A stretch of 22,786 nucleotides of DNA, from IMG/VR virus record IMGVR_UViG_2547132281_000007, positions 1 through 22,786 of that record, one strand, 5' to 3'. The translations under genes and the position numbers were made by a program. The notes beneath the pieces are model-generated. The model ran no database searches and was not told where the DNA came from. It worked only from the letters and a program-made list of their open reading frames with translations. Within the stretch, counting starts at the first letter, position 1. Each line of letters opens with the position of its first letter. Of the stretch, positions 2,779-22,786 are shown in pieces. Source of the stretch: a virus (taxonomy: Duplodnaviria; Heunggongvirae; Uroviricota; Caudoviricetes).

Positions 2779-2855
2779 GCCTGAAATTTAAGCTGTTTAA
2801 AATCATGATGTTAGAAACACTGTTTTTTAACGATGGCGACAAAATGGCGGCAGCG

Positions 2856-4265: not shown

Positions 4266-4741
4266 GACAGCAGCCCTCCCACCGTTTTACTGATATCGCT
4301 TAAGGCAGACGTTGTCGTATCCTGCAAATTATTCAGCTGCGCACTGAGATCACCGAACATATCGGACAGGGATTCATCCACCCGTTTGAGCGACAGGGTG
4401 AACTCAATCCGGCGCGGCATACCATCGCGGAAAAACTCCGTTTTAGTCTGATTCAGTCCCTCAATCACATACATGCCGTAAATCGTGCCGCTGCCTTCAA
4501 TCAGGGGCCATGCTTTCCCCTGTTCTGCCATCTGCTCCAGTGCCAGCAACGACAGCCTGCCGCCTGTTATTTCCGGCATAAGAACACCGGAAAGCGTCAG
4601 CATGTCGTTTTCCGGTCCCAGAAACTGCGTGGACGGACGTCGGTTTACCCGACTGTTTGCCGCATGTCGCCAGCTGCGTTGATACTGCAGTTCCTGATAC
4701 GGAACGGTGCGCAGCATAAACACGTACAATCCCAGCACCAT
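4262..4741 (-). CDS. P2 gpU-like tail protein
   Basis: 159-aa ORF MVLGLYVFMLRTVPYQELQ...; size and sequence recalled as matching P2 gpU, with translational coupling to D. Confidence 0.88.
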   Translation of the reverse strand: MVLGLYVFMLRTVPYQELQYQRSWRHAANSRVNRRPSTQFLGPENDMLTLSGVLMPEITGGRLSLLALEQMAEQGKAWPLIEGSGTIYGMYVIEGLNQTKTEFFRDGMPRRIEFTLSLKRVDESLSDMFGDLSAQLNNLQDTTTSALSDISKTVGGLLS

Positions 4742-4782
4742 CAGCCTGGAAAAGAAATCCGAGTTCTAATCGCTGGAGAAAA

Positions 4783-5040
4783 TTGCCTGATGGAACCATC
4801 ATTCAAATGGGAATATCAGCATCAGGGCCATTAGGCTCACCTGTAAATATCACCCTGCCGATATCTTTCAGCAATACCAATTATTGTGTTGTTGCATCGT
4901 ACGATAATGCACGGTCAGGTGTGTCAACAATGGTTAGTTTTGCAGCGTTACCTGTTTCACCATCGCAATTTTCCCTGATGTCATCTGTGACTGAGCAAGG
5001 AATAAATCCTTTTGCTTACTGGATTGCTTTTGGAGATTAA
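4783..5040 (+). pseudogene. orphan tail-fibre C-terminal cassette (alternative variable domain, 5'-truncated)
   Basis: Open frame from 4720 (TTG start annotated at 4783), on the opposite strand to the tail genes and immediately followed by a tail-fibre-assembly gene. It has no N-terminal shaft domain and no upstream crossover site; the product resembles distal tips of phage side tail fibres. Confidence 0.5.
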
Positions 5041-5043
5041 TAA

Positions 5044-5463
5044 ATGGATAGATACTTCTATTCACAAAAAGAAAATGGTTTTTTTACCGATTTAAATAAA
5101 GCACCTTCAGATGCTGTTGAGATAACCACGGATGAATGGCTGTTACTACTGGATGGTCAGGATAATGGCATGAAAATAGTCAGCAATCAGGAGGGATATC
5201 CGGTTTTGACAGAGCAACCACCTTTATCAAAAGAAAACCTTATTGCATTGGCGGATTTGAAAAAAAGAAAACTTATTAATGAAGCCAACGAGCACATGAA
5301 CAGCAGACAATGGCCAGGTAAAGCGGCTATTGGTCGTCTGAAAAGTGAGGAACTGGCGCAATATAATTTATGGCTGGATTATCTGGACGCACTGGAACTG
5401 GTTGATACCTCCAGTGCGCCAGATATTGAATGGCTTACGCCTCCGGCAGTTCAGGCCAGATGA
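5044..5463 (+). CDS. tail fibre assembly protein (alternative cassette, Tfa/U' type)
   Basis: 139-aa ORF with the C-terminal motif LVDTSSAPDIEWLTPPA typical of Tfa chaperones; sits 3 bp after the orphan fibre tip and converges on and overlaps G. Confidence 0.7.
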   Translation: MDRYFYSQKENGFFTDLNKAPSDAVEITTDEWLLLLDGQDNGMKIVSNQEGYPVLTEQPPLSKENLIALADLKKRKLINEANEHMNSRQWPGKAAIGRLKSEELAQYNLWLDYLDALELVDTSSAPDIEWLTPPAVQAR

Positions 5464-6040
5464 CATCCGGCGCGGTGCTGGTATCTGTTGCAGTCACCGC
5501 GTCAATGTAATCCAGCACGGCGTTAAGTCGGGTTGTTTCTGTCTGCGTCAGTTTACGTGCGGCCTGCAATTTCAGCTGAATCAGACTGATGGAAGCCATT
5601 GCAGCATCAATCAGTGACTGACGCTGTGCTTCTGCCGCGTCTACTGCGGCGCTATGCTGTGCCTCAGTATCGGTCACCCATTTCTCACCATCCCATTTAT
5701 CGTATGGCGTTAATGGGGCGATAGTGGTTGTATTTTCAGGGTAATCACCCGGAACTGTGATTTCTTTGGTATCTCCCGTTTCGGTACTATAGACAACTTC
5801 ACCGCGATGGTCTGGCACATATTCCCATGAGTTTAAATCTGCCGAACGACAGATTGCATAACCAGCTTTATGTGTACCTGGTGCATCCAGACAGGAACAT
5901 GCCGGGATACCGACGCCGACAGCGAGATATTCAGTTGATGTAGAAATATATTCCCGCGTTTCACCATCATAATTATAAACGGTAATATCTCCCGCTTTTA
6001 TGGCAATGAGTTCGCTATTTAATACAGCTTTATTCATCAT
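5435..6040 (-). CDS. tail fibre assembly protein (P2 gpG-like)
   Basis: 201-aa ORF with the Tfa C-terminal motif DTSTAPDVIWPELPEA; immediately downstream of H with a 4-bp overlap. Confidence 0.85.
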   Translation of the reverse strand: MMNKAVLNSELIAIKAGDITVYNYDGETREYISTSTEYLAVGVGIPACSCLDAPGTHKAGYAICRSADLNSWEYVPDHRGEVVYSTETGDTKEITVPGDYPENTTTIAPLTPYDKWDGEKWVTDTEAQHSAAVDAAEAQRQSLIDAAMASISLIQLKLQAARKLTQTETTRLNAVLDYIDAVTATDTSTAPDVIWPELPEA

Positions 6041-7593
6041 GCGGCCCTCACAATATAATTAAAAGCGATGTTACGAGGACGAGTTTCTGTACCTACATTT
6101 TCACTAATTTCACCATAACGTTTAACACTACGAGAGCTAAGAGCTCGTAGTGAGGAAGGCACCTTAAGACCGGGTTCGTCCGTTTTAACTATTCCCCCGT
6201 CACCGTATGTAGCCAGTATTCCTGGGTTTACGCCTTCCCGTGCACTTCCTGCGGCGAGTCCGTCCCCTGTCCATAATTCCATATAGTGTGCATGGTCCAA
6301 AATTGTGTGTGGCTGCCAATTAAGCAAAGCGCGACCAGTATCAATCCCGCGACCGTCATCCCAGCCACGAATAAATTCACCGCGTAAATCAGGCAATTTA
6401 TTGGTCGGGTAAGCCTTTGCCAGTTCCGGGTATTCTTCAGCAGAAAAAGCCGCACCATTGCATTTCAGCCAGCCTGTCGGCGGAGTGGCTGAAGGCCACG
6501 GAACAGGCACCCCAACCGGTAATGCAGAGCCTTCTCCCAAACCAAGGTATGTGAGAAGACCAGCTACATCCTTTCCACTCAAATTGGTAAGCGTATTGTC
6601 CAGCGGTTGTTTACCTGCCAGCGCATTAAGCATTGTCGTGGCAAAGTTCGGATCATTCCCCAGTGCCGCCGCCAGTTCGTTCAGTGTATCCAGTGCCGCA
6701 GGTGCAGAACCCACCATTCCTGCAATCGCCGATTTCACAAATGCCGTGGTGGCAATTTGTGTATTGTTGACCGACTGTGCCGCAGTAGGTGCGGTTGGCG
6801 TTCCGGTGAGTGCCGGACTCGACAGCGGCGCTTTCAGTGCCAGCGCATTGTTAATGGTGGTACTGAATTTCGGATCATTGTTAATGGCTGCGGCTATTTC
6901 TTTCAGCGTGTCCAGCGTGGCTGGCGCACCATTAATAAGAGCCGTCAGAGCCGCCTGAACAAACTCGGTGGTCGCAATCTGCGTGGTGTTATTCCCTGCT
7001 GCTGGCGTTGGCGCTTTGGGTGTCCCGGTAAACGTCGGACTTTCTTTGGGTGCATACTGTGAATGCGGGTCCGGTGCGGCAAGATGTTTTGCCATCTGAT
7101 CATCCGCGTACACCTTCAGCTCCAGTGCCTTGTCATCCACATACTTGCGGGTTGCCAGCACTACAGCAGGGTCGATTTTCAGGGTGATATTGTCCGTGCT
7201 GCTGGTAATCAGCACCATGCGCACGGTCTGAGTGCGCCCGCTACCTTCAGCCAGTTGCGGCTTATAGCTTTCCGGGCAGTTGCCCACGGCAATCAATGCC
7301 CCGGACTCATCAAACAAGCCCACTTCACGTATCCACCAACCGCCCTCGTTTTCAGGGATCACCTGTTCGGCAATAATCTGGCTGCTGTTCTGCGGGTCGA
7401 TATAAAGCATATTCAGCGCAGCCCGGCGTTTCTCATTTACCAGTGCCGTCTGCTTTGCGTCCGGCGTTGGCAATACTCCACCGCCATCGCCCACCGCCAT
7501 ATGGGTAATTTTTAGCGGCACACCGAGCGCGGCGGCGCTGGCAAGTTTCGCCGCGCCAATATCCGTCAGCAGGGTATAAAATTTTGTGCTCAT
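6037..7593 (-). CDS. tail fibre protein (P2 gpH-like)
   Basis: 518-aa ORF with a conserved P2 H-like N-terminus (MSTKFYTLLTDIGAAKLA...), internal tandem repeats (NTTQIATTEFV / NNTQIATTAFV) and a divergent C-terminal receptor-binding region. Confidence 0.9.
   Translation of the reverse strand: MSTKFYTLLTDIGAAKLASAAALGVPLKITHMAVGDGGGVLPTPDAKQTALVNEKRRAALNMLYIDPQNSSQIIAEQVIPENEGGWWIREVGLFDESGALIAVGNCPESYKPQLAEGSGRTQTVRMVLITSSTDNITLKIDPAVVLATRKYVDDKALELKVYADDQMAKHLAAPDPHSQYAPKESPTFTGTPKAPTPAAGNNTTQIATTEFVQAALTALINGAPATLDTLKEIAAAINNDPKFSTTINNALALKAPLSSPALTGTPTAPTAAQSVNNTQIATTAFVKSAIAGMVGSAPAALDTLNELAAALGNDPNFATTMLNALAGKQPLDNTLTNLSGKDVAGLLTYLGLGEGSALPVGVPVPWPSATPPTGWLKCNGAAFSAEEYPELAKAYPTNKLPDLRGEFIRGWDDGRGIDTGRALLNWQPHTILDHAHYMELWTGDGLAAGSAREGVNPGILATYGDGGIVKTDEPGLKVPSSLRALSSRSVKRYGEISENVGTETRPRNIAFNYIVRAA
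6532..6557. other. candidate Hin/Gin/Cin-family invertase crossover site inside the tail fibre gene
   Basis: 26-bp imperfect palindrome TTCTCCCAAACC-AA-GGTATGTGAGAA (12-2-12, AA core), matching recalled hixL TTCTTGAAAACCAAGGTTTTTGATAA at 20 of 26 positions. It encodes ...TYLGLGEG... at the expected constant/variable junction of H. Confidence 0.5.
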
Positions 7594-9442: not shown

Positions 9443-9564
9443 ACCGGGCCTCCGGTTGTATCGCCGCCTTTCAGGACGCCAGTATGCTGATGCGCATCAA
9501 CAACAATCCCGTTAGAGCTCATCGCTCCGCCGCCCTGGGTATCCGTTCTGGTCCGGTGCGCTGT
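9439..9564 (-). pseudogene. remnant 3' end of spike gene V (about 40 codons)
   Basis: Short open frame ending ...GGGAMSSNGIVVDAHQHTGVLKGGDTTGGPV* whose TGA overlaps the W ATG (ATGA), as V/W do in P2. It carries an HxH-type motif and is truncated by an in-frame stop at 9565-9567, with no N-terminal part present. Confidence 0.4.
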
Positions 9565-9593
9565 TCAACCGTGGGCGCAACAAAGCCGATAAG

Positions 9594-10436
9594 GTGGACA
9601 TCGACCTGTCCCACAACAATCTGGCCCCCGGCCTGCTGTGCGCAGACGGGCAATACCGCCAGATAGTCACCGTGGAAGATGCGGTGCGCGGCGGCTGTAA
9701 CCTGTTCGACCTCGACCAGTTGCGCATGGAGTACAGCCCGGACGAATACCAGAACCTGCTGATGTGTGAGTTCGTGGACGATCTCGCGTCCGTGTTCCCG
9801 CTCAGCGAGCTGCAGGCGTGCATGGTGGACAGCTGGGAAGTCTGGACCGACTTTCATGCACTGGCCCTGCGCCCGTTTGGCTGGCGCGAGGTGTGGATCG
9901 GTTATGACCCGGCAAAAGGTACGCAGAACGGCGACAGTGCCGGATGCGTTGTGGTGGCTCCGCCAGCCGTGCCGGGCGGTAAGTTCCGCATTCTTGAGCG
10001 TCACCAGTGGCGCGGGATGGACTTCCGCGCCCAGGCGGACGCCATCAAAAAACTGACCGAACAGTACAACGTGACCTATATCGGCATCGACTCGACCGGC
10101 GTCGGTCACGGGGTTTATGAGAACGTGAAAGCGTTCTTTCCTGCCGTCCGGGAGTTTGTCTACAACCCCAACGTTAAAAACGCGCTGGTACTCAAGGCCT
10201 ACGACATTATCAGCCACCGCCGTCTGGAGTTTGACGCCGGGCACACCGACATTGCGCAGTCATTCATGGCAATCCGTCGCGCAACCACCGCCAGTGGCAA
10301 CCGCCCAACCTATGAAGCCAGCCGCAGCGAAGAAGCCAGCCACGCCGATCTGGCCTGGGCAACAATGCACGCACTGTTTAACGAACCACTGCAGGGCGAG
10401 TCCGCCAATACCAGTAATATTGTGGAGATTTTTTGA
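9594..10436 (+). pseudogene. terminase large subunit (P2 gpP-like), C-terminal fragment only
   Basis: 280-aa ORF with a GTG start; motifs ...VWIGYDPAKG...DSAGCVVVAPP...KFRILERHQWRGMDF...YIGIDSTGVG...SHADLAWATMHA match the nuclease half of P2 terminase. The reading frame opens only at 9516, so the N-terminal ATPase half (about 300 aa) is absent. Confidence 0.75.
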
Positions 10437-11464
10437 TGGGAAAGAGTAAGAAGAACCGCGCTGCGTCGACGAACCAGATCCAGCATAAAAGTCAAACTAC
10501 AGCCGAAGCATTCAGCTTCGGTGATCCCGTTCCTGTTCTGGACCGCCGCGAACTACTGGACTATGTGGAATGCGTACAGACAGATCGCTGGTATGAGCCG
10601 CCAGTAAGCTTTGACGGACTGGCGCGCACCTTCCGCGCCGCCGTGCATCACAGTTCACCAATTGCGGTGAAATGCAACATTCTGACCAGTACCTACATCC
10701 CCCACCCGCTGCTCAGCCAGCAGGCTTTTTCACGTTTTGTGCAGGACTATCTGGTATTTGGTAACGCCTACCTGGAGAAACGCACGAACCGCTTCGGTGA
10801 AGTTATCGCCCTTGAGCCTGCTCTGGCAAAATACACCCGACGCGGGTTAGACCTGGATACCTACTGGTTTGTGCAATACGGTATGACAACCCAGCCGTAT
10901 CAGTTCACGAAAGGCAGCATTTTTCATCTGATGGAACCGGACATTAACCAGGAGATCTACGGCCTGCCCGGTTATCTTTCTGCCATTCCGTCCGCCCTGC
11001 TCAATGAGTCCGCCACGCTGTTCCGACGCAAATATTACATCAACGGCAGCCATGCAGGCTTCATCATGTATATGACCGATGCCGCGCAGAATCAGGAGGA
11101 TGTGAACAATCTCCGCAACGCGATGAAAAGTGCCAAAGGTCCTGGTAACTTCCGCAACCTGTTTATGTACTCGCCTAATGGCAAAAAAGACGGGCTTCAG
11201 ATCATCCCGTTGTCAGAAGTCGCAGCGAAGGATGAATTTCTGAACATCAAGAACGTGAGCCGGGACGATATGATGGCGGCGCATCGTGTACCGCCACAGA
11301 TGATGGGGATTATGCCGAATAATGTTGGGGGATTTGGGGATGTGGAGAAGGCTAGTAAGGTATTTGTACGCAATGAGTTAAATTCACTCCAACAACGAAT
11401 TAGAGAGGTGAATAATTGGCTGAATGATAAAGTAATAAAATTCCAAGCCTATTCGTTATCATGA
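10433..11464 (+). CDS. portal protein (P2 gpQ-like)
   Basis: 343-aa ORF overlapping the P stop; FSFGDPVPVLDRRELLDYVEC and SATLFRRKYYINGSHAGFIMY motifs recalled as matching P2 Q. Confidence 0.9.
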   Translation: MMGKSKKNRAASTNQIQHKSQTTAEAFSFGDPVPVLDRRELLDYVECVQTDRWYEPPVSFDGLARTFRAAVHHSSPIAVKCNILTSTYIPHPLLSQQAFSRFVQDYLVFGNAYLEKRTNRFGEVIALEPALAKYTRRGLDLDTYWFVQYGMTTQPYQFTKGSIFHLMEPDINQEIYGLPGYLSAIPSALLNESATLFRRKYYINGSHAGFIMYMTDAAQNQEDVNNLRNAMKSAKGPGNFRNLFMYSPNGKKDGLQIIPLSEVAAKDEFLNIKNVSRDDMMAAHRVPPQMMGIMPNNVGGFGDVEKASKVFVRNELNSLQQRIREVNNWLNDKVIKFQAYSLS

Positions 11465-11533: not shown

Positions 11534-12718
11534 CTATTCCTTATTCAAATCAACCAACTTGTCCATAAGAGTTTCATTGTTATACCCCTCATGCATTTCA
11601 GTTCGTTTCCCTGAAAATTTTCTTTTATGAAACTCATTTATATCAACATTAAGATGTTCACAAATTTGCTCAAACTCATCTAGATAGAGAGGATCAACAT
11701 AATAATTATCTGAAATCAATTTTTTTTTGCGCATTTCTTCGTAAGTTGATTTCAGAGTGTAACGTACTGGGCATAATGCCTTTATTATTTCATGAATAAA
11801 CTCATCATTGTTGACCCCATAATTTCTTAGCTTTAAAAATAGCTTTTTTCGATCATCGGCAATTTTAAAGCAAGCATCCGCAAACTCTAACTTTTCAACA
11901 CCACCAGCAACATAAAAGTCTAATAAAGCCTTCCTTTGAAGGCTAATATCTTCCTCCGGTTTATAATCGTTAACTTTAACACTTCTAATAGATTTCTCTT
12001 TATTTTTTCTACGAGCTGAAATAATATCACTTGGGATGCTAAGAGACATTGCAAGCAATGCCATAAGAATCAAACAAAGAAAAGCATATACAAACACCCT
12101 TATTATTTGATACCACCATTTACTTGTTGTAAAAACCTCACTCCAAAAAGATTCAGTCTGAGAGTCGCCACTCATTTTGAGAATATCAAACCCTTTTACA
12201 CCAGCGACTTTACCAACCAACGATATAACTGGACTCGAATTCTCACTCCCCAAAACAAAAAAGCTCACCCGAAATTTTTCGTCAGGCTCTATGATTACCG
12301 GATTGAAAACCAAAGAATCATTACTAATCCTTGGCTTTATATTGTCCTTTAGATACACACTGTCTGTAATAATTGTAGGTTTCTCTACAACTTCACCTCC
12401 AGAAACTCTTAACGTTAGTAATGATGAATCATCAAAGTCACCTTTCCTTATAACAGCATTACCAGTATTTTTAATTGTTACATTTATTAGCCATAAGTTT
12501 TTTTTGGCTGTTCTGAGTTCTTCCCCATTATATGAAATAGATAATCCTCCGACAGCTTGATGAATATCAAGAACTTTTGTCGGCTGCATTAGTTCAATCG
12601 AAATATTCCCTTGTTTTTCATAATAGAAGCCAACATAAATCGCCACAACAAAACTAACTAAAGCTACTACAGCCATGAATCCAGCAGACTTTACAAATCC
12701 CCATATCGAACTGAGCAT
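11534..12718 (-). CDS. hypothetical 2-TM membrane protein (prophage cargo; candidate superinfection-exclusion or abortive-infection factor)
   Basis: 394-aa ORF in AT-rich DNA. N-terminal TM helix (FMAVVALVSFVVAIYVGFYY), a beta-rich central domain, a second TM (WWYQIIRVFVYAFLCLILMALLAMSL) followed by a positively charged stretch (RRKNKEKSIR), then a helical C-terminal domain. No family recognised. Confidence 0.6.
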   Translation of the reverse strand: MLSSIWGFVKSAGFMAVVALVSFVVAIYVGFYYEKQGNISIELMQPTKVLDIHQAVGGLSISYNGEELRTAKKNLWLINVTIKNTGNAVIRKGDFDDSSLLTLRVSGGEVVEKPTIITDSVYLKDNIKPRISNDSLVFNPVIIEPDEKFRVSFFVLGSENSSPVISLVGKVAGVKGFDILKMSGDSQTESFWSEVFTTSKWWYQIIRVFVYAFLCLILMALLAMSLSIPSDIISARRKNKEKSIRSVKVNDYKPEEDISLQRKALLDFYVAGGVEKLEFADACFKIADDRKKLFLKLRNYGVNNDEFIHEIIKALCPVRYTLKSTYEEMRKKKLISDNYYVDPLYLDEFEQICEHLNVDINEFHKRKFSGKRTEMHEGYNNETLMDKLVDLNKE

Positions 12719-12781
12719 TTTTCGAACTACCCCTTATCTTATCTCATGAGTTGTTTTAGGATATTACACTATTTGCGCGCG

Positions 12782-12800
12782 CTCGTATCCCCGCCACGCC
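12782..12800 (-). other. candidate cos site (cohesive-end sequence of P2/186 type)
   Basis: Minus strand reads GGCGTGGCGGGGATACGAG followed by CGCGCGC. Recalled P2 cos is GGCGAGGCGGGGAAAGCAC and 186 cos GGCGTGGCGGGGAAAGCAT, about 14-15 of 19 matches. The block is GC-rich between two AT-rich genes. Confidence 0.5.
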
Positions 12801-12845
12801 TGCCCGCTTTGTGTAGTGGTTTTCATGCAGGTGCCTGATCCACGC

Positions 12846-12869
12846 AAAAGCCCGCCAGTTCTGGCGGGC
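12846..12869 (-). terminator. putative Rho-independent terminator downstream of the DUF2971-like gene
   Basis: + strand AAAA then gcccgcc-agttct-ggcgggc; on the minus strand this is a GC stem-loop followed by UUUU. Confidence 0.45.
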
Positions 12870-12935
12870 CTTAGCAAAAACGATCCTCAAACGGTCATGC
12901 AAATTCAGGCAGCATAGGCATGCACTGTTGTTAGG

Positions 12936-14054
12936 TTAGTTCGTAATGCCAATTTCCTTCAAAACTTTAGCCATTTCCGTCTGACTTAACTTGTTCCTGA
13001 ACAAAGTGAAATTTTTCATTTTTTCCGCTCGTTGCCCTTTTGAAATAGTAATCTTTCCTGATGCTGATAACTCAGAGTCAAAAAAATAACATATTGTTGA
13101 ATTTGAATTCTCCATATTTGACTTGATACAATTCCATATGCTTTCTTTTTTCATTTCACACATTCTAGGACCAAAAATGATCCCTTTAACAACATTAGCA
13201 TCATGATGAAAAATATGTCCAATATTTCGATTTACGCGTCTTTGAACATGCCGCTCACTCCCTATTCCTGCATTTGCCTCCGGAATAAACATTCGATATT
13301 CAGCTTCATATCTCCAAAATCTATTTTTAGTTAAAAATAACTCTGCAACATTTGCGCTTGGGTCTAGAAGTGAAACCTCTTTAGCCTGATTACTATATTT
13401 TATTGGCTTAACTGGAAAATTAAATTTATCTGATGAAAATAAATTTTCTCTTAGCTTCATTCCAGTATAGGGTATACCATCAATATTAAAATCCTGCGTT
13501 TCATAAATCACAACACAACCACTAAAGCCAGCAGCATAATGCGCCCACATCATACGATCTAACGCATTAGCTGAAAATGACACACTGAATACTGCAGGAA
13601 CTATTTTCCTATACAACCTTTCTTTGATACTGTTCTCGCAAAGTGAAACCAAATATTGGCGTGGTTCAGGAATATTTCCATAAATAGCAGAATTAATCAC
13701 ATTGATAGGAAGTAAACCATCATCTATGATCTTACGTATCTCATCAACGTGTGAGTCAAACAGGCTATCTAATGACTCAATGCTACTTTTTATTTTTTTT
13801 CCTCTAAAAATACGATTCAATCCCTTATGTATTTTCAAATTACTCAAATCCAATATGTGACTCAAATTTTTATAGGATTTATCGCAAGGAGAACGCAATA
13901 AAATATCCCATAATTTCAATTTATTATCGAAGCGATAATCTATATTGAGATCATTGGGATCATTCAATTGCGCAGGAGCGGAAAAATATAATTCATTATA
14001 ACGAATAGCTTTCTCGAAGAAGAAGTCCGGACGGTAATACTTGAAAAGATACAT
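12936..14054 (-). CDS. DUF2971-like hypothetical protein (prophage cargo at the P2 old/tin position; candidate anti-phage effector)
   Basis: 372-aa ORF in AT-rich DNA with an AGGT RBS. N-terminus MYLFKYYRPD...FSAPAQLNDPND and internal MMWAHYAAGFSGCVVIYE resemble my recollection of the DUF2971 signature (LYKY..., FNDPxE, MWshYa). Positioned between the replication/tum module and cos. Confidence 0.65.
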   Translation of the reverse strand: MYLFKYYRPDFFFEKAIRYNELYFSAPAQLNDPNDLNIDYRFDNKLKLWDILLRSPCDKSYKNLSHILDLSNLKIHKGLNRIFRGKKIKSSIESLDSLFDSHVDEIRKIIDDGLLPINVINSAIYGNIPEPRQYLVSLCENSIKERLYRKIVPAVFSVSFSANALDRMMWAHYAAGFSGCVVIYETQDFNIDGIPYTGMKLRENLFSSDKFNFPVKPIKYSNQAKEVSLLDPSANVAELFLTKNRFWRYEAEYRMFIPEANAGIGSERHVQRRVNRNIGHIFHHDANVVKGIIFGPRMCEMKKESIWNCIKSNMENSNSTICYFFDSELSASGKITISKGQRAEKMKNFTLFRNKLSQTEMAKVLKEIGITN

Positions 14055-14438: not shown

Positions 14439-14672
14439 TTAATGCAGCCAGCTGTCGTCTTCCCACACCTTCTGCATAATTTTCATCACTTGTTTCCTTT
14501 CTTCGTCCAGTTGCAGTCCGGTCAGTTCCACACCGTTAGAGCTACCTTTACGGATACGAATTACCGTTTTGGGATACAGGGGGCGCAGATTGCGGTAAAG
14601 CTCTGATTCAAGGGCGTCTAGGGTAGACTGGCTAATCTTCTGCTCTTTATCGATCATTATTTCAATGCGCAT
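14439..14672 (-). CDS. DinI-family protein
   Basis: 77 aa from the ATG at 14672, with a GAGGGG RBS 6 nt upstream. MRIEIMIDK...LDALESEL...VWEDDSWLH aligns in recall with E. coli DinI (MRIEVTIAK...AIDALAGEL...ETWESADDWF). The annotated ORF extension to 14744 has no support. Confidence 0.75.
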   Translation of the reverse strand: MRIEIMIDKEQKISQSTLDALESELYRNLRPLYPKTVIRIRKGSSNGVELTGLQLDEERKQVMKIMQKVWEDDSWLH

Positions 14673-14912: not shown

Positions 14913-14932
14913 CACTGTTTATATTTACAGTA
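14913..14932 (-). promoter_or_regulatory. LexA box (SOS operator) upstream of the tum/DinI-like operon
   Basis: Minus strand TACTGTAAATATAAACAGTG is CTG-N10-CAG, matching consensus TACTGTATATATATACAGTA at 17 of 20 positions. It lies about 40 bp upstream of the AGGAGG RBS and is flanked by promoter-like hexamers (TTTACA ... TATACT). Confidence 0.6.
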
Positions 14933-15024: not shown

Positions 15025-17439
15025 TTAATACAGGTTCCGCCACTTATCATCTTCCTGCAAACGCTGGTTCCGATAGAAAATACGCAGGCCTGCTCCTGAC
15101 GGAATGCTGCCGCCGCGAAGGAGTAAATCGACCTCTTTCTCGCTGCCATCAAATCTTCTGGACTTCAGTTCATAGACGAGCTGCTGTCGTTGATGGTCTG
15201 TAATTCGCTGTTTGTAGTCTCTACGCCGTTTCGGTTTCACCAGGCGTAACCTTGCAGCCAGTTCCCGGCGTTCTTTTTTGTTCATACTGTGCAGGTAATC
15301 GTGCAACTCCTTGTCATCCATACGGGTGATATCCGTTCTGGTATCCCCATCAGCTGATTTGTCTTTCCCTTGTTGGTACAAATTTTCAGCAAGGGGACAG
15401 TTATTGCCACGAGTCCAAGGGGCGCAAGCGCCCTGGTCGGCTGCCGCCTCCTGAACGTCAACGGCCTTACGAACCATTTTCCACTTCACTGCATGAGTGC
15501 AGATCTTGCCCTCTGCAATGGGTGACCAGATGCCATAAATACGAATACCGTGATCGCCATAGGCGGTCGGCTCTTCGTTAATTTCATAAGCAGTTCTGAT
15601 GAGGTGATATTTACGGGGAACCAGTACACCTCCCTGCTTCATGATATAGGTGGCAAAACAACCAGCATCAGCAGCAGCCAGAATGGCATCAAGGCGCGGG
15701 TTATCCAGTACCGGCACACCTGCTTTTTTGTCACCCTGCTGCCTTGCCGCCTGACCAGCCAGCAATCGCAGTTCACGGTAAGCCTGACGCCCCGGAATAC
15801 CAAAGAAGCGGAATTGCTGAACACGATGCAAAGACGCCCAGGCATTCACGTATTCAGCGTTATCACGAAGAGATTTACCCGTTTCCTTGCTGATCTCGCC
15901 AGCCAGACCACGCCCGTCAATGTTCTTACTGATGTATTTCGCTATGTAGCTTGTCGGCGTTCCTTTGCGCGGGTTAATCAGCTCAGACTTAAAGCGCGGC
16001 CCCGTGTTATTGCCCAGCTCCTCGCGGTCTTCACGGATAGCAAACTTACGCAACAATGCAGTAATGGCGCGGCGGTCTTTTTTGCGCATGAAACACAACA
16101 GGTGCCAGTGAACTGTGCCGTCGTGATGCGGCTCAGCCACCCGCACGCCATACCAGCGCAACCCGGCTTTGTGCATCGCCTTACGAAATGCAGCAAACAT
16201 ACCGACCAGATAATCGCTGCTTTGTCTTACCGTCGCGTTTTTCCAGGTCGGGTTGGGTCTGCCGTTATTTAGCGTGGAATGGAAACGTGACGGACAGGTA
16301 ATGGTGTAGAAAACGGCGCAGTCACCGCGCATTTCCGCGATAAGCTCCAGACCTTTAACACAGGCCATCATCTCATTGCGGCGATGCGCCGGGTTGCTGC
16401 AGCTGGCGTTTACCACATCTTCCATATCCAGCGCGTCTCCGTCTTCGTTCACCAGTTCATGAGAACGGAAAAACTCCAGCGACTTACGGCGCTGCTCACG
16501 TTTATGCATCACAGCTTCATAGCTGACATAGGGAGATGCTTTTTTGCTGACCAGGCAGACAGCACGCAACTGCTCTTCCCGCCATTCGCAACGCATCTTC
16601 CACAATTTCCGATACCACCAGTCGGCGCACAGCATACGCGCCAGCGAGCCCGGAATGAGTTCATAGGGCACTGGTTTACGGCGGTTTCTTTTCCGACGGA
16701 GTTGCTCAAACGCAGGCGGGATGACATCCAAACGTAGGGTTTCCGCTGCCACCCTTTCCCATGTCTTGCGGATTTCTTCTGGCTTAACATCATCGGTGGC
16801 GTACAAATCACCACAAGCGGCATCAAGACACATGCTCATATGCGCAGCGACAAGGGTAGACAGGCGTTTCACCTGATCCTGACTCATTTCAGGCAGGATC
16901 AGCAGGCCGTCCAGCCCTTCATGGCTTGCCATAAAGCGAAAAGAAGTGGATAGCTGACTGTCGCGTACATGCTCCAGTCGTTCCAGACATGGCTTAATCG
17001 TCTCACGCAGATAGCGAGAATAAGCCTTTGGCCTGCCCAGGCTGCTGAAATATTCGATACGTTGCATCAGCGGCTTGCTGATGTGGGAAGGCTGGGCGCT
17101 GACGTCCGCCAGAATGACCATGTCCGGGTTAAAACGCTGCTGTTCATGCGCCAGCTTTGCCCGACTAATGAGCTTATCCTGCTCCATTTCACGCTGGACA
17201 GGATCACGGGATTCATTAAAGAAATAACGCTCCCAGACCTGCTCACTCAGTGCATCGCGGCGCAGCTGTTCCTGCTCATTATCGGCAGCGTACAGAGTGA
17301 TCAGGTTTGAAAGTGCAGACTCCAGCGCAACTTCCGCCGGGTCCAGATACGGGTTAATGGCCTTTTTCGGGCCGTTCCATGAAAATGCTACAGCGGCCTC
17401 GTTAAAGCCGCTAGAGTTGCTCATATCGTCATGACTCAT
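15025..17439 (-). CDS. replication initiation endonuclease (P2 gpA-like, rolling-circle)
   Basis: 804-aa ORF of the size and family expected for P2 gpA (recalled as about 760 aa), directly downstream of dam with an ATGA overlap. Confidence 0.88.
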
Positions 17440-20421: not shown

Positions 20422-20643
20422 CTAACTAAGGTTTAGATTGCATTCTGAAAGCGCATCAACGGTCATGGCTGCTATGTTGATCATCACTTTTTCGCGTTTT
20501 TTATCTTTGCGCAAACGGTGACGGATAAGGCGTCCGTCAGCCAACATGTCATTGATGGTATCGATGGACAGCCCTGTCAGCTCGCTATAGCGCTCAATAG
20601 TCACATGAGGCGTGGTAAGAGTGATTGAAATGTTAGGTCTCAT
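20422..20643 (-). CDS. Apl/Cox-like excisionase and transcriptional regulator
   Basis: 73-aa basic ORF with an HTH-like segment, first gene of the early operon and divergent from the repressor, as apl in 186 or cox in P2. Confidence 0.65.
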
Positions 20644-20726: not shown

Positions 20727-20768
20727 GCACAATGAAATCGTCAAGATAAAAGTTCACTTGGAGTGACC

Positions 20769-21338
20769 ATGAATTTGGAGAAAGGCGGACGAGGCGCTAT
20801 AGAGCGCATGGTAGAAGCTTATGGATTCAAAACTCGACAGGCGTTGTGCGATCATTTAGGAATCTCTAAAAGTACACTCGCCACACGCTACATGCGTGAC
20901 TCATTCCCAGCAGAATGGGTAATCCAGTGCGCCCTTGAAACGGGCACCTCGCTTAATTGGCTCACAACCGGACATGGTTCAAAGCAAACTTCAGGTAATA
21001 CAAATACTATGGAAGTTGCTAAATATGTATTATCTGATGGTGCCTTGCGTGAAGACGGTTTTTATATTTTTGATAAGGGATTTCTACCCTCTACGTTTAA
21101 AAAACCTTTTGTCATCACAGATAACAATTCTGAATTTATTTGTGATAAAGAATTTGATGATATACGTGATGGTAAATGGGTAATAAGTATTGATGGCGAA
21201 GTAACGATCCGTGACATTACTCGTTTACCCGGTGGAAGAATCTTCGTCGAGGGTGGAAACAGAGCCTTCGAATGTAAGATAGAAGACATTGAAATAATTG
21301 GTAAAATTATAAGTTTAACAGTCAAGTATGTTAAATAG
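20769..21338 (+). CDS. cI: CI immunity repressor (phage 186 type)
   Basis: About 190 aa; ...VEAYGFKTRQALCDHLGISKSTLATRYMRD...CALETGTSLNWLTTGHG... has an N-terminal HTH and a 186 CI-like C-terminal domain (186 CI recalled as 192 aa). ATG at 20769 has a GGAG RBS; an in-frame GTG at 20763 is the alternative start. Confidence 0.85.
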   Translation: MNLEKGGRGAIERMVEAYGFKTRQALCDHLGISKSTLATRYMRDSFPAEWVIQCALETGTSLNWLTTGHGSKQTSGNTNTMEVAKYVLSDGALREDGFYIFDKGFLPSTFKKPFVITDNNSEFICDKEFDDIRDGKWVISIDGEVTIRDITRLPGGRIFVEGGNRAFECKIEDIEIIGKIISLTVKYVK

Positions 21339-21353
21339 TACCGGGAGGAAACT

Positions 21354-21545
21354 ATGCTTGGTAAGGTATTTTTTGTGGTTTTGTCATGTTCTTTGTTATT
21401 AAACCCACTAACTACCTATGCTAGAAATTATCCCTGCTCAGGGAAAAAGGGAGGTGTTTCTCACTGTACCTCAGATGGCAAATTCGTTTGCAATGATGGA
21501 ACTATTAGTAAATCCAAAAAAATCTGTACTAAAAACTCACGATAA
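21354..21545 (+). CDS. small secreted cysteine-rich protein (moron between cI and int)
   Basis: 63-aa ORF with a strong GGGAGG RBS, a predicted signal peptide ([23 protein letters not shown]) and a 40-aa mature region with 4 Cys and many Lys; AT-rich. Confidence 0.45.
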
Positions 21546-21733
21546 CTTTTGCTTTTATATCTGCGTCTAAAATAAAAATGAGCCGCAGGTTAACCGCAAA
21601 AGTTACATGCTCACATAGCAAAAAGAATAGCCAACTTCATTATGGCTTCAGTGAGATGTATGGTCGTAGGATTTCATACATTGACACTGGTTATACATAC
21701 AGTAAAAATGCTCTCTACTGGAGGGCATTTTTT

Positions 21734-22786
21734 ATGGCAGTACGAAAACTCACCACAGGGAAATGGCTTTGCGAATGTTACCCCGCCGGACGAAGTGGGC
21801 GTCGTGTGCGTAAACAATTCGCCACCAAAGGCGAAGCTCTGGCTTTTGAGCGTCACACTATGGAAGAAACCGAATCAAAGCCATGGCTGGGCGAATCAGT
21901 GGATCGTCGAACCCTGAAAGACGTGGTTGAGCTATGGTTCAAACTACATGGTAAATCTCTGACTGCTGGGCAGCATGTCTATGACAAATTGCTGCTGATG
22001 GTTGACGCTCTGGGCAATCCTCTTGCAACCGATCTCACCTCTAAAATGTTTGCCCACTATCGAGATAAACGCCTAACAGGCGAGATCTACTTCAGCGAGA
22101 AATGGAAGAAAGGAGCAAGCCCGGTCACCATTAACCTGGAGCAAAGCTATCTAAGTAGTGTTTTTAGCGAACTATCCCGTCTGGGCGAATGGTCGTATCC
22201 GAACCCACTGGAGAACATGCGAAAATTCACCATCGCAGAAAAAGAGATGGCATGGCTTACCCATGAGCAGATTGTTGAATTACTGGCTGATTGCAAACGT
22301 CAGGACCCAATTCTAGCACTGGTAGTTAAGATATGCTTAAGCACAGGCGCACGCTGGCGAGAAGCCGTAAATCTTACTCGTTCACAGGTGACCAAATACC
22401 GAATTACCTTTGTAAGAACGAAGGGGAAGAAAAACAGAAGCATCCCTATCAGTAAAGAGCTTTACGAAGAGATCATGGCGCTTGATGGGTTCAATTTCTT
22501 CACAGACTGCTATTTTCAATTTTTATCCGTGATGGAAAAAACGTCTATCGTGCTCCCTCGCGGCCAACTCACACACGTTCTGCGCCATACGTTTGCGGCG
22601 CACTTCATGATGTCGGGTGGAAACATTCTGGCCTTACAAAAAATTCTCGGACACCACGATATAAAAATGACTATGCGTTACGCACATCTGGCACCGGATC
22701 ATCTGGAAACAGCGCTCCGTTTCAATCCTCTGGCAACGCTGCCAAGTGGCGACAAAGTGGCGGCAGCGGTTGGCATTACCCCGTAA
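21734..22786 (+). CDS. int: tyrosine integrase (P2/186 Int family)
   Basis: 350 aa from MAVRKLTTGKW (recalled P2 Int starts MAIKKLDDGRY), with catalytic residues in context: ARWREA (Arg), HVLRHTFA (His-x-x-Arg) and MRYAHL (Tyr). The stop codon is the last three bases of the window. The annotated upstream extension to 21578 is unlikely. Confidence 0.9.
   Translation: MAVRKLTTGKWLCECYPAGRSGRRVRKQFATKGEALAFERHTMEETESKPWLGESVDRRTLKDVVELWFKLHGKSLTAGQHVYDKLLLMVDALGNPLATDLTSKMFAHYRDKRLTGEIYFSEKWKKGASPVTINLEQSYLSSVFSELSRLGEWSYPNPLENMRKFTIAEKEMAWLTHEQIVELLADCKRQDPILALVVKICLSTGARWREAVNLTRSQVTKYRITFVRTKGKKNRSIPISKELYEEIMALDGFNFFTDCYFQFLSVMEKTSIVLPRGQLTHVLRHTFAAHFMMSGGNILALQKILGHHDIKMTMRYAHLAPDHLETALRFNPLATLPSGDKVAAAVGITP

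Follow-up and report, generated by a model that had tools for sequence, protein, structure and literature searches.

The 19 bases at positions 12782-12800 of the window, by which we mean the whole 22,786-nucleotide stretch of viral DNA analysed here, can be assigned by alignment to phage ends as an authentic and complete cos site of a P2-family (Peduoviridae) prophage of the Fels-2 type. Our account as a whole, to which we give a probability of roughly 85%, is that a bona fide Fels-2/186-like cos persists in a recently double-deleted prophage that is a vertically inherited, non-lytic carrier of cargo genes. The prophage lies between ybjL and rcdA of E. coli and derives from a Fels-2/186-like phage of the P2 family. 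The terminase of that parent (gpM and gpP), judging from what is known of the family, would have recognised a cos block of about 160 bp and nicked it in a staggered manner; such nicks by P2-family terminases at cos give cohesive ends with 19-nt 5' overhangs. Two deletions, of 6.1 kb and 7.4 kb, both recent and microhomology-mediated, have cost this prophage the tail shaft genes, the lysis cassette and the head genes, together with the small terminase and that half of the large terminase which carries the ATPase. They left cos and the portal gene untouched, and likewise the two cargo genes that flank cos and the early region in its entirety. The site would thus be intact by recency and would be no token of a satellite lifestyle, and the element would act as a vertically inherited, non-lytic carrier of its two cargo genes. 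The literature already describes cos sites of the P2 family, their location in a defence-gene hotspot, and defective P2-like prophages in which such genes persist, and the finding as posed matters little; the one result that a specialist might find surprising is a recurrent deletion endpoint in the terminase gene P, which is described further below.

On the plus strand, positions 12782-12800 read ctcgtatccccgccacgcc; the 19-nt cohesive-end sequence (the cos nicking region) lies on the minus strand as the reverse complement GGCGTGGCGGGGATACGAG and is followed directly on that strand by CGCGCGC (12781-12775), so that its orientation is that of the P2 map. The joined ends of the P2, 186 and P4 records were aligned with the window, the LD22-1 prophage, Fels-2 and vB_EcoM-813R9, using as the conserved 55-bp core positions 12775-12829 (minus strand; TGCATGAAAACC...GCGGGCA, the 19-mer and CGCGCGC), a concept that goes back to Ziermann and Calendar 1990 as cited in PMC5694545 and PMC9594776. 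LD22-1 is identical to the window in both the 19-mer (19/19) and the core (55/55), and Fels-2 and vB_EcoM-813R9 each match at 19/19 and 54/55 positions, whereas only 15/19 and 43/55 positions are identical in 186, 14/19 and 44/55 in P4, and 14/19 and 41/55 in P2. The last six bases of the overhang differ (ATACGAG in the window versus AAAGCAC/T in P2, 186 and P4). The family hallmark, a 19-mer opening with GGCG(A/T)GGCGGGGA, is shared by the window with P2, 186 and P4, as are GCGCGC on the left-end side, TGCATNAAAACC at offset -29 and TGCAT at -101 and -124; both flank features of the core, GCGCGC and the upstream TGCATNAAAACC, are thus present in the window. The position, between the replication (old/tin) side and the portal gene Q, is the canonical P2-family location. 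The first-pass annotation had likened the 19-mer and the GCGCGC that follows it to the cohesive ends of P2 and 186. This holds at the level of the family (15/19 to 186, 14/19 to P2), but the nearest relatives are the Fels-2-type phages (19/19) and not P2 or 186. The alignments also place the match inside the conserved cos region, with the 55-bp core complete.

The family pattern GGCGWGGCGGGGA-N7-GCGCGC, searched with up to three mismatches, occurs once in the window, and shuffled sequences lead one to expect 0.02 occurrences. Among 124 cos regions sampled from IMG/VR and reference phages, the 19-mer of the window is the commonest allele (40/124) and is confined in that sample to P2-like contigs, with none among the P4-like contigs; the exact 55-mer core was found in 11 of the 124, the window and LD22-1 included.

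The whole conserved cos block comprises the core and about 126 bp on its right-end side only (12764-12926, minus strand). It is 87-92% identical to P2-like phages of Escherichia, Salmonella, Klebsiella and Yersinia over exactly that stretch, homology to other phages beginning and ending at the edges of the block. In P2, 186 and P4, the motif TGCAT stands at fixed offsets of -124, -111, -101 and -29 from the nick; each offset is occupied in 51-98% of the 124 cos regions, and the density of the motif averages 3.3 per 140 nt versus 0.13 by chance. By this fixed-offset count the window carries it on the minus strand at 12920-12924 (-124), 12897-12901 (-101) and 12825-12829 (-29), the last of these opening the 55-bp core and being present in 98% of the cos regions; at -111 (12907-12911, minus strand) a degenerate TGCCT is found, with the same change in LD22-1. 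To judge by their spacing and frequency, the TGCAT repeats are obvious candidates for terminase recognition elements. The first-pass annotation had named missing recognition elements beside cos as the outcome that would speak against it; the block is instead colinear with its relatives, with three of the four upstream TGCAT motifs retained and a hairpin in place. Two substitutions in the upstream part, TGCATG to TGCCTG (12907-12911) and CATGCA to CAGGCA (12830-12840), are rare in this class of cos (about 7% of sequences) and destroy GCAT-containing repeats; both are also found in the full-length LD22-1 prophage, and they could have weakened terminase recognition. The hairpin (12846-12870, minus strand) is GC-rich, reads GGCCCGCCAG-AA-CTGGCGGGC followed by TTTT, and has a counterpart of different sequence at the equivalent place in 186 and P4; it is probably a terminator that shields cos from transcription, and it was missed by a consensus terminator scan because it is followed by only four T. 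Fels-2 and vB_EcoM-813R9, a Salmonella and an Escherichia phage of the Felsduovirus type, share with the window both the conserved block and the hairpin, and differ from it in being full-length phages, the window being without head, tail shaft, lysis and terminase functions. Longer cos flanks are reported to boost packaging efficiency about ten-thousand-fold (PMC2231350, PMC9942202, PMC9594776). Taken as sequence, the cos of the window is probably a latent packaging signal that could still be cleaved.

The window matches E. coli chromosomes, and the best matches stretch its 22.8 kb across about 38 kb of the record. In strain LD22-1 the counterpart region (locus L001) holds an entire P2-family prophage of the 186/Fels-2-like kind, bordered by ybjL and rcdA and with the same two genes flanking cos. 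Mapped onto it, the window shows two clean deletions. The first (junction at 4741-4743, 6.1 kb lost) joins the start of U to the alternative fibre cassette and removes the tape measure gene T, E, E+E', the FII tube, the FI sheath, the fibre invertase and part of the alternative fibre cassette; it was found only in the window's own lineage. The second (junction at 9540-9541, 7.4 kb lost) joins V to P and removes most of V, S, R, the lysis cassette (lysC, lysB, lysA, lysozyme and holin), X, L, the small terminase gene M, the capsid gene N, the scaffold gene O and residues 1-290 of P. All of these losses were confirmed protein by protein against the LD22-1 prophage. The claim that capsid, scaffold, small terminase and half of the large terminase had been lost is therefore true relative to the intact sibling, as far as it went; the list was incomplete, since the tail has also lost its sheath, tube and tape measure, and nothing of the lysis cassette is left. 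Genes for morphogenesis, packaging and lysis are thus missing relative to an intact relative, and from its gene content the element is best filed as a defective prophage and not as a satellite. Junction 1 also deletes the native start codon of the tail gene U together with the Cin/Hin-type invertase, and with the invertase lost the tail-fibre cassette (5044-7593) is frozen in one orientation.

What remains is largely complete. Full-length genes comprise ogr, D, the fibre genes, I, J, W, Q, both cargo genes, tum, A, dam, CII, Apl and Int, and the retained full-length proteins are 86-100% identical to those of LD22-1 with the exception of CI, which is a different, shorter immunity allele; identity reaches 100% for the products of Q, tum, W, J, I and the two cargo genes. 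The portal gene Q (10433-11464, plus strand) is intact, with 342/342 residues identical to LD22-1. Upstream of it lies the 3' remnant of the terminase ATPase/nuclease gene P (9541-10436, plus strand; residues 291-588 by comparison with LD22-1), which holds a callable open reading frame of 280 aa (9594-10436) and has lost its late promoter. This frame belongs to a 90%-identity cluster of 284 distinct 'terminase family protein' sequences of 277-307 aa from E. coli, Salmonella, Enterobacter, Klebsiella and Citrobacter, and it is matched end to end by phrog_5909 (285 positions).

Protein comparison further identified a Tum/DinI-like antirepressor gene (14442-14672, minus strand), the full-length replication initiator gene A (15025-17439, minus strand; 804 aa), which contains the origin, an Apl/Cox-like excisionase-repressor (20422-20643, minus strand), a 186-type CI repressor with an immunity allele unlike that of LD22-1 (20763-21338, plus strand) and an integrase in which the catalytic RYAH tyrosine region is present (21734-22786, plus strand). 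A perfect palindromic LexA box (CTGT-N8-ACAG; 14915-14930, plus strand) precedes the tum/DinI-like operon; it stands in the gap that separates gene A from the small ORF and tum, and is placed like the SOS promoter p95 of 186. A perfect box before an operon for a Tum-like antirepressor makes SOS induction likely, and this arrangement implies, at the level of sequence motifs, 186-style SOS induction of a prophage without the ability to lyse. Comparison of att cores located one copy beside ogr (2835-2855, plus strand; GGCGACAAAATGGCGGCAGCG) and one beside int (22748-22768, plus strand; GGCGACAAAGTGGCGGCAGCG); the two are imperfect copies, and the distance of about 19.9 kb between them gives the size of the circle on excision. 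The integrase frame crosses the att core at 22745-22786 and ends in host-side sequence (C-terminus SGDKVAAAVGITP); in LD22-1 (L001 38719-39070), int and the att core are separated by an additional 352 bp, which contain a small ORF. The immunity region (20972-21675) differs as well, the window having a 191-aa 186-type CI followed directly by int, and LD22-1 a 293-aa CI with two extra genes (400 and 173 aa); it is another variable slot.

The deletions are recent. Over every overlapping base the window is 100% identical to contig AELE01000003.1 (GCA_000166615.2), and relative to LD22-1 it shows no difference in a 200-bp cos region, 0/890 differing nucleotides in the P remnant and three mismatches in the 5202 bp around cos, from tum to P. 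Since the retained DNA is near-identical to that of the intact sibling, the element is young and cos is intact for that reason; after so short a time one would expect a 55-bp site to be intact in any case, and its intactness is silent on selection for packaging. Contigs with identical junctions come only from near-clonal hosts and sit at the same site. In this small sample (about 10 contigs), host-flank differences between carriers amount to 0, 2 and 21 of 8530 nt and element differences to 0, 3/11950 and 4/1988, that is, between none and four mismatches in the 2-12 kb of element sequence aligned. Host and element divergence are thus matched, which argues for vertical inheritance and gives no sign of past mobilisation.

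Gene calls and profile searches placed two cargo genes on either side of cos. Cargo gene 1 (11534-12718, minus strand; 380/394 aa, 34% GC) fills the slot between cos and Q; it belongs to a PHROG of unknown function (phrog_29747) and gave no match in Pfam or PADLOC. Cargo gene 2 (12936-14054, minus strand; 372 aa, 33% GC) fills the slot between tum and cos, has a DUF2971 domain and matches the PADLOC defence candidate PDC-S31 (E=1e-23). Both are foreign, their GC content being 33-34% compared with 50-55% in the backbone. In related prophages the same two slots hold HIRAN/SIR2/DUF87, GmrSD, TIR, AIPR, DarT/macro or reverse transcriptase genes, so that the content beside cos varies between conserved gpA-side and gpQ flanks. 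Variable cargo between gpA and gpQ beside cos is the P2 cos-proximal defence hotspot (Rousset et al. 2022, PMC9122126); insertions beside cos had been seen in older work (Dodd and Egan 1996, as cited in PMC5694545), and a later paper (PMC13586616) describes P2-like elements that are defective and yet retain their defence genes intact. The window shares with the published hotspot (PMC9122126, PMC13586616) the AT-rich variable cargo on both sides of cos, with one PADLOC candidate, and shows no substantive difference from it; cargo gene 1 is without an assigned function. That cos marks the boundary between two cargo genes, as had been proposed, is borne out by cargo gene 1 on the Q side and cargo gene 2 on the tum side, and this is the hotspot layout already published.

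The arrangement raises the alternative that cos serves the element as an anchor for recombination, the conserved 160-bp block together with Q and tum/A letting each cargo slot swap independently with incoming P2-family phages. One further prophage (locus L138) has the cos block of the window and the same DUF2971 slot, with a different gene in the Q-side slot, its homology to the window resuming within 5 nt of the edge of the cos core; the contents of the two slots are likewise independent in Fels-2, vB_EcoM-813R9 and other loci, and rapid swapping of hotspot cargo, defective P2 elements included, has been discussed (PMC13586616). However, a block of 160 bp with 87-92% identity offers recombination little length, functional phages could equally have acquired the pattern before the deletion, and no exchange event is dated after the deletion. 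We regard this alternative as doubtful, though it fares best among those considered.

An account in which the site still works for the element is that of a satellite in the making, along the lines of the first-pass suggestion that a P2-like helper could mobilise or package it in trans: the SOS-induced 19.9-kb element would excise, replicate from its own origin and be packaged through cos into the capsids of a P2-family helper, either co-induced or superinfecting, spreading its cargo. The inventory of the window is compatible with this, with att cores at both ends, a full-length Int, Apl/Cox-like excisionase, A and CII, a LexA box with a Tum-like antirepressor, and a complete cos core. There is also precedent. 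The P2 terminase packages cos plasmids in trans, underlength ones too (PMC2231350, PMC9942202, PMC9594776), and the defective prophage Sp13 of E. coli O157 Sakai is mitomycin-inducible, excises, replicates and yields DNA in DNase-resistant particles (Asadulghani et al. 2009, PMC2669165). Sp13 resembles the window element in being P2-like, without most morphogenetic genes and with early functions kept; it differs in being known by experiment (PMC2669165), the window element being known here from sequence, and in having a P4 epsilon-like gene where the window element has a Tum/LexA module. The LD22-1-type terminase clade, moreover, is found in about 22% of complete E. coli genomes. Against this, transfer of Sp13 was not detected in the published test (PMC2669165), a second copy of the terminase gene occurs in only about 3% of carriers (1242 places in 1207 records), the genome amounts to 59% of head capacity, and cos phages show no lateral transduction from an unexcised site (PMC12829572).

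The comparison with true satellites points the same way. P4-like satellites share the family cos with the window and depend on a helper for virion proteins, but the window has no sid, psu, delta, epsilon or alpha-type genes. Dedicated genes for exploiting a helper were not found: all of its genes are ordinary P2-family genes, and every open reading frame corresponds to a gene of the intact sibling. Nor is horizontal spread apparent, the exact element with its identical junctions occurring only in one near-clonal lineage at one site, with divergence matched to that of the host. The choice of helper would also be narrow. M is 81-100% identical to that of LD22-1 within its clade and about 49% identical in phages with P2/186-type cos alleles, in which P is about 63% identical; this cos allele thus goes with a terminase clade of its own, which makes P2 and 186 themselves doubtful helpers, and a Fels-2-type helper would be needed. 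Packaging of the element in trans is thus possible in principle and has precedent, the comparative evidence gives it no support, and we consider it unlikely that the element spreads in this way. In loci L009-L128, the overhangs ATACGAG and ATACGAT go with one M/P clade, and AAAGCAC, AAAGCAT and ATAGCAT with another that is only 49%/63% identical, which suggests, from this co-variation, packaging-specificity groups within the P2 family; the ATACGAG allele was found in no P4-like element of that sample.

The right endpoint of junction 2 proved to be shared by other prophages. It lies at L001 24009, corresponding to window 9540/9541 (GCT|TATCCGTTCTGG), the first base of codon 291 of P. The exact 280-aa product of the P remnant occurs in 54 blocks of the assembly collection, with varied neighbours, and these blocks and further loci were mapped onto the intact LD22-1 prophage. 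At least 10 independent deletions end within 5 nt of window 9540/9541, comprising nine left partners in E. coli and one deletion in Erwinia. On the L001 map the left partners are D (4568, locus L143), the U/T boundary (5758, L152), T at two positions (7019, L146; 7131, L138), the tube gene (~9427, L179), I (14785, L180), V (16644, the window), X (19764, L141) and N (22134, L139). Microhomology at the junctions is 1-7 nt and almost always includes TA. The retained P DNA differs between alleles at 13-35/890 nt, the copy in the window being identical to the intact gene, and prophages with the shared endpoint differ in their cargo and, in one case, in integration site; the deletions are therefore independent. 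In the Erwinia rhapontici prophage, whose P has about 79% DNA identity to P of other genera, a deletion joining lysC to P ends 3-5 nt from the site as judged against the closest intact relative.

A census of 5,426 complete E. coli genomes with a 300-nt probe centred on the window 9540/9541 site gave matches in 1207 records, of which 1185 were intact across the site, about 18 matched on the right side only and at most four on the left side only; among the matches listed, both right-only examples were anchored at the endpoint site. A protein search found many other truncations of P, so that the anchor is a hot spot and not the sole endpoint. Several prophages carry two or three colinear deletions. 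Other endpoints recur as well, at L001 7128-7131 (7128|24056 and 7131|24009) and at 16644 (16644|24009 and 15154|16644); both read GGTA|AC, and 16644 is the left side at window 9540. Islands of 66 nt (L180 6001-6066) and 126 nt (L152 ~4754-4879) survive between deletions, and both begin exactly at the anchor, as if the stretch were protected.

Tentatively, and at somewhat less than even odds, we propose that a site-specific process repeatedly breaks P2-family prophages at Tyr291-Pro292 of P (TATCCG) and, by way of microhomologies of 1-7 nt, joins this fixed end to variable points in the late region as far as 19 kb off, turning prophages capable of lysis into non-lytic elements. A single ancestral deletion shared by descent is ruled out by the differences between P alleles and by the identity of the window copy to the intact gene. 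Bias from the way in which loci were looked up accounts for clustering within about 55 nt and not for the same nucleotide, and in two complete genomes whose choice was free of this bias the deletion has that very base as its anchor. A pseudo-origin cut by the A protein was rejected as the nick site of P2/186 (GCGCCTC|GGAGTCCTGTCAATAAC) is unrelated to the anchor sequence, and hairpin-induced slippage was rejected as no structure is present (z = -0.68 and +0.20). An intron, intein or homing-endonuclease site was also discarded, the apparent 700-bp insertions being a second weak match downstream and the +1 residue being Tyr. Type I-F CRISPR self-targeting with a protospacer at the anchor returned repeat-level matches only. 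Over 6 nt at its outer edge the anchor resembles, in a comparison by eye, the half-sites of gix/hix; an inverted-repeat scan of L001 11650-13800, the region of the invertase and tail-fibre cassette, found no cix-like repeat, and nothing in these two comparisons supports an invertase crossover site at the anchor. Scans of metagenome contigs and GTDB representatives gave no junction patterns, IMG/VR no rightward deletions and the deposited phage records no anchored partial matches, and no description of a recurrent endpoint in the terminase gene P was found in the literature searched.

The products of such a process would in every case retain the part of P that encodes the nuclease, the portal gene and cos, along with the defence hotspot and the early genes. 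If the proposal is true, such derivatives could be raw material for helper-dependent, cos-bearing defence islands. A defined mechanism would constitute a testable route by which bacteria or rival elements disarm prophages yet keep defence cargo and a packaging signal, and would provide a simple sequence marker for truncation events in genome surveys.

The same derivatives bear on a further alternative, in which the deletions arose as in defective interfering genomes: during lytic replication a shortened genome would have formed, been packaged through cos, injected and integrated, so that cos was used in trans once. All recurrent deletion derivatives retain exactly cos, ori/A, CI, Int and att, and many have several colinear microhomology junctions, as expected from serial template switching in one replication pass. 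With the direction of rolling-circle replication inferred from the strand of the annotated nick site, the fixed endpoint would be met first, with the variable endpoint ahead. However, the element matches the intact sibling of a related host in site and cargo and nearly so in sequence, so that deletion in situ is simplest. We consider such an origin very improbable and retain the reading of a prophage deleted where it stands. That the 19-mer resembles cos by chance, for which only its G+C-rich, low-complexity look could be cited, can be dismissed given the 0.02 matches expected per window, the syntenic place, the 160-bp conserved flanks and the alignment at 19/19 to known phage ends.

A minor observation concerns the neighbourhood of the terminase gene in other members of the family. 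About 60 bp downstream of P in loci L189, L215, L247, L252-L256 and L258, which come from several genera, the place at which the portal gene would be expected has a gene with 30-38% similarity to residues 126-368 of P, and this similarity falls in the ATPase region of P.
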